Positions 1-5,365 of a stretch of 5,365 nucleotides of DNA are shown piece after piece. Location: IMG/VR virus record IMGVR_UViG_2529293078_000007. One strand, written 5' to 3'. A model generated the notes under the pieces. It had not been told where the DNA came from and ran no database searches. It saw only the letters and a program-made list of their open reading frames with translations. The position numbers and the translations under genes are program-made. The stretch is from a virus. Its lineage: Duplodnaviria; Heunggongvirae; Uroviricota; Caudoviricetes. Each line of letters starts with the position of its first letter. Positions within the stretch are counted from its first letter, which is position 1.

Positions 1-287
1 CTGTGACTGCGCATACGGGCCACCAGCAGAGGCGGCATTGCCTTTTCGATCGCCGGTAACAGAGCCTGCATTTTTTCAACTGCATCAGGGGTGTCTTTCT
101 CTATCCAGCGGAAAATTTTCTGGGTATTGCGAGCCAGGGCTTCCGGATGGCTGTCGTCGTACAGTTCAGGAAACGTCATACCCAACTCAAAATAAGCCTG
201 GGTTATTCCAGCTGCCGGAACTTTTTCGCCATCAGGACGCGCCCAGGCATTCATCGCCATGCGGATGTGTTCATGCTTGATTTTCAT
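1..287 (-). CDS. YdaT-like prophage regulatory protein (PF06254-type), partial; start codon at 287-285, runs off the window start
   Basis: Minus-strand frame is open from ATG (plus 285-287) to position 1 with no stop. Strong SD AAGGGGGG about 5 nt upstream (plus 293-300). N-terminus MKIKHEHIRMAMNAWARPDGEK... recalled as typical of YdaT-family proteins that follow cro-like genes in Rac-type prophages. The + strand ORF 38..280 is its antisense shadow. Confidence 0.5.
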   Translation of the reverse strand, partial: MKIKHEHIRMAMNAWARPDGEKVPAAGITQAYFELGMTFPELYDDSHPEALARNTQKIFRWIEKDTPDAVEKMQALLPAIEKAMPPLLVARMRSH

Positions 288-513
288 GAATCCCCCCTTG
301 GTTAGAAGGCGGATTATGATCAGAATCGGGAATGACAACCGTCGGTATGTGTAACTCATATTTGAGCGCCCCGGCAGTGACTGCCTGAATTAGCAACGCC
401 CATTTCCACGGAACGTCTTCCCCCCACATGCTGACTGTGGTTTTTGACGTTCCTAGAGCGGCGGCTGTTTTAACAACTCCGCCAAAATAGCCTAATACTT
501 CTGATTTTTTCAT
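271..513 (-). CDS. dicC: Cro/DicC-like small DNA-binding regulator, 80 aa
   Basis: Start chosen at ATG 513-511 (MKKSEVLGYFGG...) because GGAG lies 6 nt upstream; the track's start at 561 has no SD. Pattern YFGG..K.A.ALG....VS.W..D.VP...A.L.Q..T.G.L.Y resembles DicC as remembered. Divergent from the repressor gene. Its 3' end overlaps the YdaT-like start by 17 nt. Confidence 0.65.
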   Translation of the reverse strand: MKKSEVLGYFGGVVKTAAALGTSKTTVSMWGEDVPWKWALLIQAVTAGALKYELHIPTVVIPDSDHNPPSNQGGIHENQA

Positions 514-541
514 GAGTCGCTCCATAAAACTGAACGCCAAA

Positions 542-605
542 AGTTTAATAATCAAAACCAAAGAAAGTCAAGAAACAAAACCATCTGTGTTTTAAAATCA
601 AAACA
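542..605. promoter_or_regulatory. Divergent promoter/operator region between cro-like and repressor genes; three operator-like sites at 23-bp spacing
   Basis: AT-rich 91-bp intergenic region. Motifs TCAAAACCA (552-560), ACAAAACCA (575-583) and TCAAAACA (598-605) lie exactly 23 bp apart. The best site is the 18-bp palindrome TGTTTTaaaatcAAAACA (588-605), which overlaps the repressor start codon. Confidence 0.4.
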
Positions 606-1243
606 TGAACAAGCAAACAATATCTGAACGCATAACCCAACGTATGCATGCGCTAAACTTGAAAGGCAAAGACCTTGTCAATGCCACTGGCGCATCAAAA
701 GGCTCCGTAAGTCAATGGATGAACGGTGGAGGAGCGCCGTCCTCGCGTTACATAAGTTCACTGGCAAAGATATTGAAAGTAAACGAAAATTGGCTTCTTA
801 ATGGAGGAGAGTTAAATACAGGTGATTCGCTTGATCTATCTTTACCGCCGATAAAAACGGTTCCGCTACTATCACTTCAGCAGGCAGCAAGCTGGAGTGA
901 TTATATGAAAAATTCCTCAATAACCTCTTGTGTGCAGCTTGTCGGAGAAATCCCGGCCAATACCTTTGCTGTTGTTCTAGAGAGTGACAGTATGTCGACA
1001 TCTGGTGGTGGAGTTTCCATCCCAAATGGTTCAACAGTTTTTGTTGATCCCGATCGAATCGTACAACCAGGAAATATTGTCCTTGCCTTACCCAAAGGGA
1101 CCACAACGCCTGTCATTCGCAAACTGGAGATAGAAGGGCCGGATATTCTTTTAGTCCCCACGAATCCTCGCTACCCTTCAATTATGCTGGATGATCTATC
1201 TTGCATATTGGGAGTATGCTTTAAAATTCAACAAGATATTTAA
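605..1243 (+). CDS. Lambda cI-type prophage repressor, 212 aa: N-terminal HTH (XRE-like) plus C-terminal S24 LexA-like peptidase domain
   Basis: SLAKILKV matches lambda cI LAKILKV. C-terminal domain has the S24 Ser (ESDSM, Ser129) and Lys (VIRKLE, Lys173) at cI-like spacing, and LVPTNPRYPSIM resembles cI LQPLNPQYPMIP. No SD precedes ATG 605, so the mRNA may be leaderless as for lambda PRM. Confidence 0.85.
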   Translation: MNKQTISERITQRMHALNLKGKDLVNATGASKGSVSQWMNGGGAPSSRYISSLAKILKVNENWLLNGGELNTGDSLDLSLPPIKTVPLLSLQQAASWSDYMKNSSITSCVQLVGEIPANTFAVVLESDSMSTSGGGVSIPNGSTVFVDPDRIVQPGNIVLALPKGTTTPVIRKLEIEGPDILLVPTNPRYPSIMLDDLSCILGVCFKIQQDI

Positions 1244-1307
1244 CCAACCTCATCTATTTGATTAACTGTATGCCATCGTAGTGATGGCGTAACAGCTGCC
1301 TGCTTAA

Positions 1308-1329
1308 AATGTTTTGATAAAAAAACATT
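1308..1329. promoter_or_regulatory. Operator-like palindrome AATGTTTTgataaaAAAACATT (second copy of TGTTTT-N6-AAAACA)
   Basis: Perfect 8-bp inverted arms with a 6-bp spacer. Core and spacing are identical to the 588-605 site. Lies directly against the -35 of the predicted promoter downstream of the repressor gene. Confidence 0.4.
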
Positions 1330-1356
1330 GACCTTAAATGTTCGTTTTTCTAAACT
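1328..1356 (+). promoter_or_regulatory. Candidate sigma70 promoter (PL-like) for the ydfA-like operon
   Basis: TTGACC (1328-1333), 17-nt spacer, TAAACT (1351-1356). Sequence-only prediction. Confidence 0.35.
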
Positions 1357-1535
1357 TCATTCATTCCCTCACCCCGCCCCACAGAATGCAGGGCAATACT
1401 TCGAGTTACCAGGCAGTGGTCAGGGGTTAAGTAGCCAGCCCGAGGCGTAAGAACATGACGGCAGGGTTCAACTTTAATAACTATGCAGCAGGTTTTTGTT
1501 CCGCTACCCCGGCGTTAAGGGGAAATGAGGTCAAC

Positions 1536-1688
1536 ATGGATACGCTCAATCTTGGCAACAACGAATCTCTGGTATGTGGCGTGTTCCCCAACCAGGACGG
1601 TACGTTCACCGCGATGACGTATACCAAAAGCAAAACGTTTAAAACTGAAGCTGGCGCGCGTCGCTGGTTAGCCAGAAACACTGACTGA
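1536..1688 (+). CDS. ydfA: YdfA-like small prophage protein (DUF1391-like), 50 aa
   Basis: ATG 1536 has GAGG 5 nt upstream, whereas the upstream in-frame ATG 1455 has a poorer SD and would give 77 aa. MDTLNLGNNESLVCGVFPNQDGTFTAMTYTKSKTFKTE... matches Qin YdfA as remembered, in the same position after the repressor. Stop TGA 1686-1688 overlaps ATG 1688 of the next frame. Confidence 0.55.
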   Translation: MDTLNLGNNESLVCGVFPNQDGTFTAMTYTKSKTFKTEAGARRWLARNTD

Positions 1689-1699
1689 TGAGGTTGACG

Positions 1700-2338
1700 A
1701 TGGAATTTAAAGATTTACCTCCTTCAATCCAGGAGATTGCAGCACACACACTTCGTCATCGTCTGAACGAACTTGAATTGGAATCGGTAACGAAAAAAGA
1801 CACTGATAATATGGCTCGTAATGTGCGCGATGCGTTTACCGGATTGTATTTCTGTGCGTCTATAAATAAACACGACTCAGAGAGTGTGGCAAATAAAATT
1901 GCAGAAACGACAGCGCAAAACATCAATACGAAACCAACGGAAGAAGAAATTGATCAGTTTGCTCATGATGCTGGTTTAAAAAACAAGAAAGAAAAATCGC
2001 CATATGCGGGGAACATGTTTGTTTATGACAATCTCATCAGAATTCGTGGCGAAATTCCGGCGGAATACCTGGCAAGAGTCCATCAGGCATTGCTTAAAAA
2101 TTTGGAAACAGAATTATTTGATGGCAACACTAACGGTTTCTTCATGGTATCAGGCCTTGAGAAAGACTGGGATGCAGAAAAACGCTGGAATGTTGCTACA
2201 TGGTTATTCAGTAACAGAGCCGCTGCACTGGAAGCTTCGGCATGTATTTGCGGCCTGTTCTTAACAGACCACAAATATAATCTGGATGTGTACAGTTATA
2301 TTTACGCTGAACACGGTCCACTCTGGATTGACTGGTAA
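1700..2338 (+). CDS. Hypothetical protein, 212 aa, no recognisable domain (alternative start 1688 would give 216 aa)
   Basis: Long ORF with GAGGT 5 nt upstream of ATG 1700. The alternative ATG 1688 overlaps the ydfA-like stop (TGATG). No Walker, HEPN, nuclease or transmembrane signature recognised by eye. Confidence 0.6.
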   Translation: MEFKDLPPSIQEIAAHTLRHRLNELELESVTKKDTDNMARNVRDAFTGLYFCASINKHDSESVANKIAETTAQNINTKPTEEEIDQFAHDAGLKNKKEKSPYAGNMFVYDNLIRIRGEIPAEYLARVHQALLKNLETELFDGNTNGFFMVSGLEKDWDAEKRWNVATWLFSNRAAALEASACICGLFLTDHKYNLDVYSYIYAEHGPLWIDW

Positions 2339-2548
2339 TTATAAGGAAACACCAGCAGGGCCGCGGCGACCAACAGAACGATTAAAATCAATAATGCCAT
2401 TATAAAGGACATTATTTAATTTATCGTCGAATGCTGATTCTGTGAGCCTCAACTCTGAATGAGTTTTTAATAACCCTGATTGCCTGAGTTGATTTACCAG
2501 GCATTCAATCTGTTTTTCAATAAGCGGATTTCTTTTTTTGTTTGGCAT
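2339..2548 (-). CDS. Hypothetical small protein, 69 aa, convergent with the 212-aa gene
   Basis: ATG at 2548-2546 is preceded by GGAGGAT (plus 2553-2559). The track's start at 2560 is the ATG inside that SD. Stop abuts the stop of the + strand gene (TAATTA, 2336-2341). Uses rare codons (AGA, AGG, TTA); no homolog recognised. Confidence 0.35.
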   Translation of the reverse strand: MPNKKRNPLIEKQIECLVNQLRQSGLLKTHSELRLTESAFDDKLNNVLYNGIIDFNRSVGRRGPAGVSL

Positions 2549-2579
2549 TTTATCCTCCATTGAGGTTCTGGGTTAAAAA

Positions 2580-2885
2580 TGGAGACCAACACGCTGTCAC
2601 GTGTGGTCGTGCGCCGGACACGGATAAGAATCCGGTACTGACAGTTTACTGAAAGGATATTTCCCTGAAAAGTCAGTGCATAACGCGAAAGCGTACGGCG
2701 AAGCTCTTTCCCTTAGAAGGCTTGTCGTTAGATTTCTTCGAACGTGCGCTTCCGGTTGTGGCACTCCGCGAAATGGCGCGGCGGTAAGTATGGCGGGGTT
2801 ATTCCTTCCCCATTGAGGACACCGGGTTGTCAGGTTGACCATACGCTTAAGTGACAACCCCGCTGCAACGCCCTCTGTTATCAAT
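2580..2885 (+). other. GC-rich, hairpin-dense non-coding region upstream of DicF (possible dicF precursor or separate structured RNA)
   Basis: No + strand ORF longer than about 20 aa. Nested hairpin CTGTCA (2594-2599)/TGACAG (2639-2644) enclosing CCGGA (2614-2618)/TCCGG (2631-2635). GNRA hairpin ACGC-GAAA-GCGT (2683-2694). Perfect 9-bp stem GGGTTGTCA (2824-2832)/TGACAACCC (2852-2860). The 95-aa minus ORF here has non-protein-like composition. Confidence 0.3.
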
Positions 2886-2943
2886 TTTCTGGTGACGTTT
2901 GGCGGTATCAGTTTTACTCCGTGGCTGCTCTGCCGCCCTTTTT
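2886..2943 (+). ncRNA. dicF: DicF-like small regulatory RNA (ftsZ-targeting antisense sRNA), including its 3' terminator
   Basis: tttctggtgacgtttggcggtatcagttttactccgtggctgctctgccgccc followed by TTTTT matches E. coli DicF as recalled. It sits immediately upstream of the dicB-like gene as in Qin. Ends are approximate (a few nt either way). Confidence 0.7.
2901..2943 (+). terminator. Intrinsic terminator-like element (3' end of DicF)
   Basis: GGCGG (2901-2905) and CCGCC (2932-2936) flank an internally paired region, followed by a T5 run (2939-2943). Confidence 0.45.
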
Positions 2944-3112
2944 AAAGTGAATTTTGTGATGCGGTGAATGCGGCTAAGCGCACGCGGAACAGTTAAAACC
3001 AAAAACAGTGTTATGGGTGGATTCTCTGTATCCGGCGTTAATTGTTAACTGGTTAACGTCACCTGGAGGCACCAGGCACTGCATCACAAAATTCATTGTT
3101 GAGGACGCGATA

Positions 3113-3301
3113 ATGGAAACGTCATTACCAAACGTTAATACGTCTGAAGGTTGTTTTGATATTGGTGTTCTGCTCAGTAACCGGGAGTTTACTGAAGATG
3201 CCATTAACATGAGGAAATATGAGCCTTATCTGCTCAATGATAATTCCATACTTTCCCGAATTGCTCTTCTTGAACTTGGTATTTTCGGAGAACGTCAATG
3301 A
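3113..3301 (+). CDS. dicB: DicB-like cell-division inhibitor, 62 aa
   Basis: METSLPNVNTSEGCFDIGVLLSNREFTEDAINMRK... closely matches the remembered Qin DicB N-terminus (..LPNVNTSEGCFEIGV...FTEDAIN.RK), with the same 62-aa length. GAGGA lies 7 nt upstream of ATG 3113. The track ORF 3008..3301 is an in-frame upstream extension without an SD. Confidence 0.8.
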   Translation: METSLPNVNTSEGCFDIGVLLSNREFTEDAINMRKYEPYLLNDNSILSRIALLELGIFGERQ

Positions 3302-3486
3302 CTTCAGCATTTGCACTGATGATGACGGTTTTTCTTATAACGGGTGAATCACAGAATGTGATTACCGGAATTTATGCCAGTAAAGAATCCTGCCTCCAGG
3401 CAAGAGACGAGCAAAAAATTTCTGGTGAATGCCTCCCGGTAAAAAAAGTATCGCTGTACCTGAATAACGAAACACCGGCTGGATAA
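3298..3486 (+). CDS. ydfD: YdfD-like small protein with hydrophobic N-terminus, 62 aa
   Basis: ATGA start/stop overlap with dicB (3298-3301) and GGAG 6 nt upstream. Hydrophobic N-terminal segment MTSAFALMMTVFLITG. Same size and position as Qin YdfD downstream of dicB. Confidence 0.6.
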   Translation: MTSAFALMMTVFLITGESQNVITGIYASKESCLQARDEQKISGECLPVKKVSLYLNNETPAG

Positions 3487-3578
3487 CCCTCCAGCCATAT
3501 TAACACCATACCAACGGATTAAAAATGCCAGCAATGGCAGGGATTTGTTCACCCTTAAATCTGTAATGAGGTTTATCA

Positions 3579-4823
3579 ATGAGCACTGATAAAGAAGAAT
3601 TTGCGCTATATTGCGAAGCAAAAAATGACAAAGTCAGAAAACGTCTGGGAATTAAAGGTGGTTTTTACTGGACTACAGCAAAAAAATTATCTGTTGCCAT
3701 CTCCCGCTGCATTACCGCAATGGATGACAACGATTATGATGAAGACGACTTTAAAAAACCCGTTCGCGTCCATTTACCCGTTGTGAATGACCTTCCACCT
3801 GAAGGCGTGTTTGATACCGAATTCTGCAACCGATACGAAAAAGGCGGGGAAGATGGCATTACAATGGTATTTATCGCGCCCTCTCCCTCCGTGCAGGAGA
3901 AACCAGCCAGTACTGACAATACCAACGTCAACGGCGAAGACATGACGGAGATTGAGGAGAATATGCTCCTGCCGGTTTCTGGTCAGGAGCTGCCCATTCG
4001 CTGGCTTGCGCAACACGGCAGCGAAAAACCAGTAACGCACGTTGCACGGGAAGAACTTCAGGCATTACATATAGCACGGGCGGAAGAACTGCCGGCTGTT
4101 ACTGCCCTGGCCATTTCTCACAAAACAAAGCTGCTCGACCCGCTGGAGATTCGCGACCTTCACAAACTGGTACGCGACACTGACAAAGTTTTCCCTAATC
4201 CCGGTAATTCAGACCTGGGACTGATAACTGCTTTTTTCGAGGCATACCTGGACGCTGACTACACTGATCGGGGTCTGCTGACAAAAGAGTGGATGAAAGG
4301 AAATCGTGTTTCGCGTATCACCCGTACGGCTTCCGGTGCAAATGCCGGTGGCGGGAACAAAACCGATCGCAATCCGAATTTAGTACACACCTTCGATACG
4401 CTGGATGTGGAGATTGCAGCAGCCACACTTCCGATGGATTTTAATATTTATGAAATTCCGGGCAGCGTTTATCGTCGCGCAAAAGAAATCGTCCTGAAAA
4501 GAGAAAGTCCGTTCAAAGAATGGTCCGCAGCACTTCGCGCAACCCCGGGTATTCTGGACTATTCCCGCGCCGCTATTTTTGCACTTATCCGGAGCGCTCA
4601 CCCTGAGTTTTATCACTACCCGGGACGCCTTCAGGGGTATATCAACGCCTACTTAACGGAGACTGATCACGAGAACCCCAGCAAGGAAACTCTCACTGCT
4701 GCACGACATACACCGGAAAAAGATATCCTGGAAGAAGTTAACCGCGAACTGTCTGCTAAGCAGGAAACAGAAGAAGAAAATGATGAAGAAAAACCGCAAC
4801 CATCTTGCGCAATGGCAGAATGA
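3579..4823 (+). CDS. Hypothetical prophage protein, 414 aa, acidic patches; occupies the position of Qin ydfE
   Basis: Long ORF with GAGGT 8 nt upstream of ATG 3579. Acidic stretches DDNDYDEDDF and C-terminal ETEEENDEEKPQ. No catalytic motif recognised. The ydfE assignment is positional only. Confidence 0.7.
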   Translation: MSTDKEEFALYCEAKNDKVRKRLGIKGGFYWTTAKKLSVAISRCITAMDDNDYDEDDFKKPVRVHLPVVNDLPPEGVFDTEFCNRYEKGGEDGITMVFIAPSPSVQEKPASTDNTNVNGEDMTEIEENMLLPVSGQELPIRWLAQHGSEKPVTHVAREELQALHIARAEELPAVTALAISHKTKLLDPLEIRDLHKLVRDTDKVFPNPGNSDLGLITAFFEAYLDADYTDRGLLTKEWMKGNRVSRITRTASGANAGGGNKTDRNPNLVHTFDTLDVEIAAATLPMDFNIYEIPGSVYRRAKEIVLKRESPFKEWSAALRATPGILDYSRAAIFALIRSAHPEFYHYPGRLQGYINAYLTETDHENPSKETLTAARHTPEKDILEEVNRELSAKQETEEENDEEKPQPSCAMAE

Positions 4824-5365
4824 TAATCAGAAGAAATCTGGCAAAAGACCGTTTTACAGTACCAAAAACACAGGCGGGAACCAATCGTGTGATTCACCTT
4901 ATTAAGCCCGCAATCGACGCTCTCCGGAGTCAGATGGCACTAACGAGACTGAGCAAAGAGCATATCATCGATGTTCACCTCAGAGAATTCGGCAGAACAG
5001 AGAAACAAAAATGTACCTTTGTTTTTCAACCTGAAGTGTCAGCGAAAGTAAAAAATTATGGCGACCATTTTACCGTTGACTCAATAAGGCAGATGTGGGA
5101 CGCAGCGGTAAAGCGTGCCGGAATCCGCCATCGCAAATCGTATCAGTCGAGACACACTTATGCCTGCTGGTCGTTAACAGCAGGAGCTAACCCGGCATTC
5201 ATTGCAAACCAGATGGGCCATGCAGATGCGCAAATGGTGTTTCAGGTGTACGGGAAATGGATGTCAGAAAATAATAATGCGCAGGTAATGAACCGCCCCG
5301 GGTTTCCTGGAGAGTGTTTTATCTGTGAACTCAGGCTGCCAGATCATCGTTTCCGATGGAAGCAT
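4820..5365 (+). pseudogene. Tyrosine recombinase/integrase, C-terminal catalytic-domain fragment (intQ-like, lacks the N-terminal half), continues past the window end
   Basis: Frame is open from the stop at 4784-4786 to the window end. First ATG 4820 overlaps the stop of the upstream gene (ATGA). Integrase catalytic motifs are present: beta-hairpin Lys region FTVPKTQAGTNRVIHL, Arg-His in SRHTYA (about 5150-5164), MGHAD, and the catalytic Tyr in QVYGKW (5249-5251). No Box I arginine region or N-terminal DNA-binding domains exist in any upstream frame. Confidence 0.55.

Follow-up and report, generated by a model that had tools for sequence, protein, structure and literature searches.

The integrase fragment at the end of prophage Sp11 of Escherichia coli O157:H7 is almost certainly the remnant of a deletion that joined an exonuclease gene to an integrase gene

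A stretch of Caudoviricetes DNA of 5,365 nucleotides, referred to here as the window, ends in an open reading frame for the catalytic part of a tyrosine integrase that lacks its N-terminal half and whose first ATG overlaps the stop codon of the preceding reading frame. The arrangement raises the question of whether the frame encodes an expressed protein with a role of its own, translationally coupled to its neighbor, or is what was left of an inactivated gene. Comparison with intact relatives indicates that the fragment is almost certainly a non-functional deletion remnant of the integrase of prophage Sp11. The fragment itself is already known: it is an ordinary pseudogene, which has been annotated and functionally described earlier.

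A megablast search of complete E. coli genomes with the whole window returned matches of 99.9–100% identity in O157:H7 strains. Positions 1–5288 correspond to 2198695–2203982 of the Sakai genome (NC_002695.2) with two mismatches, and by its sequence the window is assigned to the early-left arm of the lambdoid prophage Sp11 of E. coli O157:H7. The order of its genes (Table 1) is that of the early-left operon of a Qin/mEp460-type lambdoid phage. In the Sakai annotation, the locus forms the end of "prophage Sp11, lambda-like phage", and the boundary to the tandem prophage Sp12 follows 106 bp further on. The two reading frames that meet at the ATG correspond to ECs_2216 and ECs_2217; they are pseudogenes in the Sakai annotation, reportedly that of Hayashi in 2001, and PGAP calls both of them partial. 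The Sakai locus is the same as that of the window and differs from it over 1–5288 only at the two bases given above; however, the Sakai fragment continues for 22 codons to the native stop, with the nearest IS629 388 bp downstream, whereas in the window IS629 follows directly after codon 409.

Table 1 Features of the window and catalytic residues of the integrase; motifs were placed on the intact protein by alignment to Tn1549 Int (PDB 6emy).
Feature	Position	Strand	Remarks
cro-like gene		−	first in the order of the window
cI-like repressor	605–1243	+	
DUF1391/ydfA-like gene			after the cI-like repressor
hypothetical gene, 216 aa			between the DUF1391/ydfA-like gene and DicF
DicF sRNA, full-length	2887–2938	+	Rfam RF00039, 75 bits against a gathering score of 48
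dicB homologue	3113–3301		downstream of DicF
DUF1482/ydfD homologue	3298–3486		after dicB
RecE-family / 3'-5' exonuclease remnant (Sakai ECs_2216)	3579–4823	+	codons 1–414 of an 820-aa protein
deletion junction	4811–4823	none	three-way comparison with L005
integrase remnant (Sakai ECs_2217)	4820–5288	+	residues 254–409 of a 431-aa IntQ/mEp460-type tyrosine integrase
Arg I (Box I), R235 in TGIRPGE			aligns with TGLRISE of Tn1549 Int; absent, upstream of the breakpoint
hairpin Lys, K269 in PKTQAG	4865–4867		present
Y361/R364/H365 in YQSRHT (Y361-x-x-R364-H365)	5141–5155		present
H387 in MGH	5219–5221		present
Tyr nucleophile, Y397 in QVYG	5249–5251		present
IS629/IS1203 (IS3 family), terminal 77 bp with inverted repeat end	5289–5365	−	after integrase codon 409

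The origin of the fragment is apparent from an intact relative, the near-identical prophage arm of strain 2015C-4944 (locus L005). The proteins encoded there by the DUF1391 neighbor, dicB and DUF1482 are identical to those of the window, and they are followed by an exonuclease of 820 residues, an excisionase of 83 residues and an integrase of 431 residues. The blastn alignment of the window with L005 consists of exactly two collinear blocks: positions 1498–4819 match L005 364–3688 with 99.6% DNA identity, and positions 4819–5288 match L005 6009–6478 with 99.4% DNA identity. Between the two blocks the window is shorter than L005 by 2,321 bp. Codon 414 of the exonuclease is joined to codon 254 of the integrase, and the crossover at 4819/4820 falls inside an imperfect 13-bp microhomology. 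The junction reads AATGGCAGAATGA in the window, AATGGCAGA-TGA on the exonuclease side of L005, and AATGGAACAATGA on its integrase side. The excisionase gene xis (DUF1233, 83 aa), which is located between the exonuclease and integrase genes in both L005 and phage mEp460, lies wholly inside the deleted stretch, and residues 1–253 of the integrase, the N-terminal 59% of the protein, are deleted as well.

Other references place the breakpoint at the same site. The prophage L006, which is less closely related, shares 89% identity with the exonuclease side up to position 4823 and continues from there with its own exonuclease. The intQ gene of K-12 has 91.6% DNA identity to positions 4811–5287 of the window, with the match starting at 4811. 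A search centered on the junction gave, in about 2,700 other genomes, integrase matches beginning at query position 112 (position 4811 of the window), and the exonuclease matches in other genomes stop at the junction. Both flanks are therefore collinear with intact genes around a single breakpoint on which independent references concur, as in a pseudogene formed by deletion, and the junction reads as the signature of an illegitimate, microhomology-mediated deletion.

The integrase of strain 2015C-4944 (WP_001206147.1, 431 aa) is identical in residues 254–409 to the fragment in the window (100% amino-acid identity), and integrases of the mEp460 type are about 94–95% identical to it. Phage mEp460, with an integrase of 426 residues, shares the gene order dicB-DUF1482-exo-xis-int. 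Unlike mEp460 and strain 2015C-4944, the window lacks integrase residues 1–253 and 410–431, xis, and the C-terminal half of the exonuclease. The intQ pseudogene of the K-12 prophage Qin belongs to the same integrase type and has the same dicA/dicF/dicB/ydfD context and the same chromosomal neighborhood as the window. It has lost only the extreme N-terminus of the integrase, through an IS2 that inserted between ydfE (exo') and intQ, and most of the gene (1,164 bp) remains. By contrast, the window carries a clean, IS-free deletion of 2.3 kb, by which 59% of the gene and the entire xis were lost.

An ancestor of the O157:H7 clone carried an Sp11 with the standard module dicF-dicB-DUF1482-exonuclease-xis-int. 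One illegitimate recombination between the imperfect 13-bp repeats (AATGG.A.A(A)TGA) then cost it 2,321 bp, with exonuclease codon 415 at one end and integrase codon 253 at the other, and with them the nuclease domain, the whole of xis and the N-terminal 59% of the integrase. The exonuclease frame now ran one codon into the integrase gene and met a TGA overlapping the Met254 codon, which created the ATGA. In the strain of the window, IS629 would have inserted later, after codon 409, and taken the last 22 residues. This is a base-by-base account of how a single event cost Sp11 its Xis, Int and exonuclease. Asadulghani et al. 2009 (PMC2669165) scored the integration function of Sp11 as "D" (defective), excision as "-" (absent), and ExoVIII-type recombination as "D", predicted that Sp11 is unable to excise, and reported its circularization, replication and packaging as all absent. 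The single deletion across the exonuclease, xis and integrase genes therefore accounts for the lack of excision published for Sp11. The junction (4811–4823), together with the variable IS629 sites described below, could provide markers for typing O157:H7 lineages.

The reading frame upstream of the ATG, which the sequence-only reading had called the upstream gene, is likewise a pseudogene. The product of the frame at 3579–4823 matches Pfam Exonuc_VIII (E = 1.6e-34) and comprises amino acids 1–414 of the 820-residue RecE-family exonuclease. The Rv2179c-like 3'-5' exonuclease domain, which occupies amino acids 639–810 of the intact protein, has been lost. The last sense codon of the exonuclease remnant (GAA, 4818–4820) spans the junction, and the TGA at 4821–4823 that terminates it is integrase sequence. 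The intact exonuclease of Sp12 was rejected as a reference for these comparisons in favor of L005, because it shares only 33% identity with the Sp11 remnant, in a middle segment. The exonuclease remnant also contains a GAA-repeat tract in which positions 4763–4778 of the window differ in length from L005 3629–3647 by 3 bp, one Glu codon; the difference looks like simple repeat slippage.

The frame of the integrase fragment is closed upstream by the TGA at 4784–4786, from which 11 sense codons lead to the ATG at 4820–4822; this ATG overlaps the TGA at 4821–4823, the stop of the exonuclease frame, in an ATGA. The sequence-only reading had described both the late opening of the frame and the overlap correctly, and had noted rightly that no IS element separates the two reading frames. 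Its extent for the integrase, 4784–5365, holds for the open frame; however, homology to integrases begins only at 4811, and 5289–5365 belongs to IS629/IS1203, so that neither end of the frame is an end of the integrase sequence. The last 26 codons of the frame (MNRPGFPGECF...) are read-through into the IS, and the native last 22 residues of the integrase (410–431) are absent from the window.

The product of the fragment matches the Pfam profile Phage_integrase (PF00589) with E = 5.6e-9 and 36.4 bits, above the gathering cut-off of 27.1, but the match covers only profile positions 53–165 of 172. Alignment to the full-length integrase, which the earlier reading had called for, places the truncation at residue 254. 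As that reading had noticed, the Arg-His, His and Tyr motifs and the Lys of the β-hairpin are present (R364/H365, H387, Y397 and K269), and the Box I arginine (R235) and the N-terminal DNA-binding domains are absent. Five of the six residues of the catalytic pocket are kept; the complete catalytic set of tyrosine recombinases, Arg I - Lys - His/Tyr-x-x-Arg II - His/Trp - Tyr, is broken by the missing Arg I. The intact integrase consists of an Arm-DNA-bind_2 domain (amino acids 9–71), a SAM-like core-binding domain (85–190) and a catalytic domain that starts at residue 206. Both the arm-type and the SAM-like core-binding domain of a lambda-type (heterobivalent) integrase are deleted in the window, no xis gene lies immediately upstream of the fragment, and about 48 residues are missing from the start of the catalytic domain. 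The fragment is not expected to bind att DNA or to catalyze strand exchange. With Arg I, the opening 48 residues of the catalytic domain and the two DNA-binding domains gone, established tyrosine-recombinase enzymology implies that there is no working recombinase.

The overlap of stop and start codons resembles that of a translationally coupled gene pair, as the earlier reading had proposed, but its composition points to an accident of the junction. Its ATG encodes Met254, an internal residue of the integrase (…NGT-M-IIRR…). Past the junction, the exonuclease frame reads GAA TGA, in which the TGA is out-of-frame integrase sequence, so that the overlapping stop and start are both derived from the integrase gene. 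As the frames of the two genes differ, the ATGA is a mechanical by-product of the deletion. Reading of the 20 nucleotides before 4820 (CATCTTGCGCAATGGCAGA) revealed no Shine-Dalgarno-like motif. A coupled pair would consist of two intact genes conserved beyond a single clone; here both members are truncated, and no intact relative has the exo'/'int arrangement, which occurs only with the O157-type junction. What looks like translational coupling is thus likely to be without function, and the claim of coupling is not supported.

An expressed protein is nevertheless the alternative that has to be weighed. The fragment could be translated by reinitiation at the ATGA and yield a protein consisting of the catalytic domain alone with a new role, for example as a dominant-negative partner in the tetramers of incoming IntQ/mEp460-type integrases. 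In favor of this, the open frame and its ATGA are real, there is no sequence bar to a product of 156–178 residues starting at the ATG, and the product would retain five of the six pocket residues in a sequence fully identical to intact Int. However, the ATGA arises mechanically from the junction and is not preceded by a Shine-Dalgarno-like motif, and the upstream frame is a pseudogene in an early operon that is normally repressed. The arrangement is limited to one clone, it is doubtful that a catalytic domain lacking its first 48 or so residues folds stably, and IS629 has broken the fragment at two different positions in separate O157 strains without evident counter-selection. A literature search for expression of ECs2216 and ECs2217 returned only a SNP table. 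Reinitiation leading to a protein with a new role is therefore very unlikely, and the earlier suggestion of an expressed fragment with a different role is not supported. It is even less probable that a low-level reinitiation product, catalytically inert and with its protomer contacts kept, interferes with the IntQ/mEp460-type integrases of superinfecting or neighboring phages; if it did, it would help to stabilize the tandem Sp11-Sp12 array. The integrase frame is also −1 relative to the exonuclease frame and open from 4787, with a run of five A at 4789–4793, and a −1 ribosomal frameshift within the 37-nucleotide overlap of the frames (4787–4823, containing GAAAAAC) would produce an exonuclease'-integrase' fusion. 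Such a fusion is hardly credible: reading of the overlap found no canonical X XXY YYZ heptamer in register, the A-run is native to the exonuclease and present in the intact gene without an integrase frame behind it, no stimulatory structure is evident downstream, and the arrangement is specific to the clone.

The missing half of the integrase could instead have been displaced rather than deleted. The C-terminal remnant lies just to the left of Sp12, and an N-terminal remnant of the same IntQ/mEp460-type integrase, comprising codons 1–227, is located at the right end of Sp12 (L004 9333–9997), which is the geometry expected if both were halves of one gene, split by integration at an att site within the integrase gene (SSV-type) or by one rearrangement, and rebuilt upon excision. 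The Sp12 remnant is 96% identical to L005 and 99.9% identical to mEp460. Nevertheless, the two parts do not add up to a gene. The Sp12 remnant stops at L005 5931 (codon 227) and the Sp11 fragment starts at L005 6001–6009 (codon 251–254), so that 70–78 bp, including the Arg I codon, are missing between them. The Sp12 remnant, moreover, carries a frameshift about 30 codons in. A deletion of its own, about 3 kb long when compared with K-12, has fused it to internal rspA sequence (L007 7894) and taken away the 3' half of the integrase gene, the att site, rspB, and most of rspA; the Sp11 remnant, for its part, adjoins mid-exonuclease sequence and no att site. Circularization occurs in neither Sp11 nor Sp12 (PMC2669165). 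The junction search found one matching place per genome and no intact copy of the C-terminal part of the integrase in O157. Complementary halves were rejected on account of the gap with Arg I, the frameshift and the independent fusion to rspA, and a split gene that excision restores is scarcely conceivable. An N-terminal half near the fragment, which the sequence-only reading had named as the finding that would speak against truncation, does not occur within Sp11; what exists is the same-type, frameshifted remnant at the far end of Sp12, which falls 70–78 bp short of the start of the fragment. The two remnants are the products of two independent deletions in two tandem prophages that carried one integrase type.

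The deletion that formed the Sp11 remnant is young. The exo'/'int junction is present in 225 of 5,426 complete E. coli genomes, always with at least 99% identity. This distribution, together with the 99.4–99.6% identity of the flanks to the intact module, makes the event recent and specific to the clone rather than ancient. The description of the fragment as an "anciently truncated dead integrase" was thus right in calling it truncated and dead, since 253 of 431 residues are gone, but the age it assigned conflicts with the identity of the flanks, the 100% identity of the protein, and the restricted distribution. The absence of decay in the remaining sequence says little about function, since so young a deletion would not yet be expected to show any.

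The remnant has been disrupted further by insertion sequences. According to blastn, positions 5289–5365 are 100% identical to the end of IS1203 in L003 and 98.7% identical to the IS of Sakai; the transposase of the element would be encoded on the minus strand past the end of the window. An IS1 terminus was ruled out by comparison with annotated records, which identified the element as IS629/IS1203 of the IS3 family. In strain 7636 (L003 7606–8915), IS629 is inserted inside the fragment at a site corresponding to position 5105; five other records give the same three-piece match as strain 7636, in which the insertion itself was inspected. Strain 9.1_Anguil (L008 8289–9601) has IS629 at 5288, in the orientation opposite to that in the window and with a TAA target duplication. 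The exact configuration of the window, with the IS in this orientation at 5288, occurs in no complete E. coli genome of the collection. As the window ends inside the IS, the IS at 5289 may reflect either a new insertion or an IS-adjacent deletion of the 388 bp present in Sakai; strain 9.1_Anguil carries a simple insertion, with its TAA duplication, at the same site. Restriction to one lineage (225 of 5,426 genomes) and further disruption (IS629 at 5105 and 5288) are both properties of a pseudogene, and the pattern of IS629 insertions fits neutral decay. In O157 strains, IS629/IS1203 has struck the integrase remnant at least three times, at 5105 and at 5288 in each orientation, and position 5288 may be a hot spot for IS629.

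The other genes of the window yielded three minor observations. DicF, dicB and the DUF1482/ydfD homologue form the Qin-type cell-division-inhibition cassette, which is intact in Sp11. The frame of the cI-like repressor is open for 212 residues with an HTH and a Peptidase_S24 domain and has 98% identity over 100% of its length to the annotated "repressor protein cI" of the induced phages vB_EcoS-813R8 and 640R1. The Sakai annotation and PGAP call only its C-terminal 112 residues (905–1243), and the Sp11 repressor was called "disrupted" by Asadulghani et al. 2009 (PMC2669165); the repressor of Sp11 may be intact and under-called in public annotation. Position 3123 of the window is C, in contrast to T in all three O157 records used for comparison, those of Sakai, 2010C-3142 and 7636, so that codon 4 of DicB reads TCA (Ser) instead of TTA (Leu). 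Codon 4 of the K-12 DicB presumably also encodes Leu.
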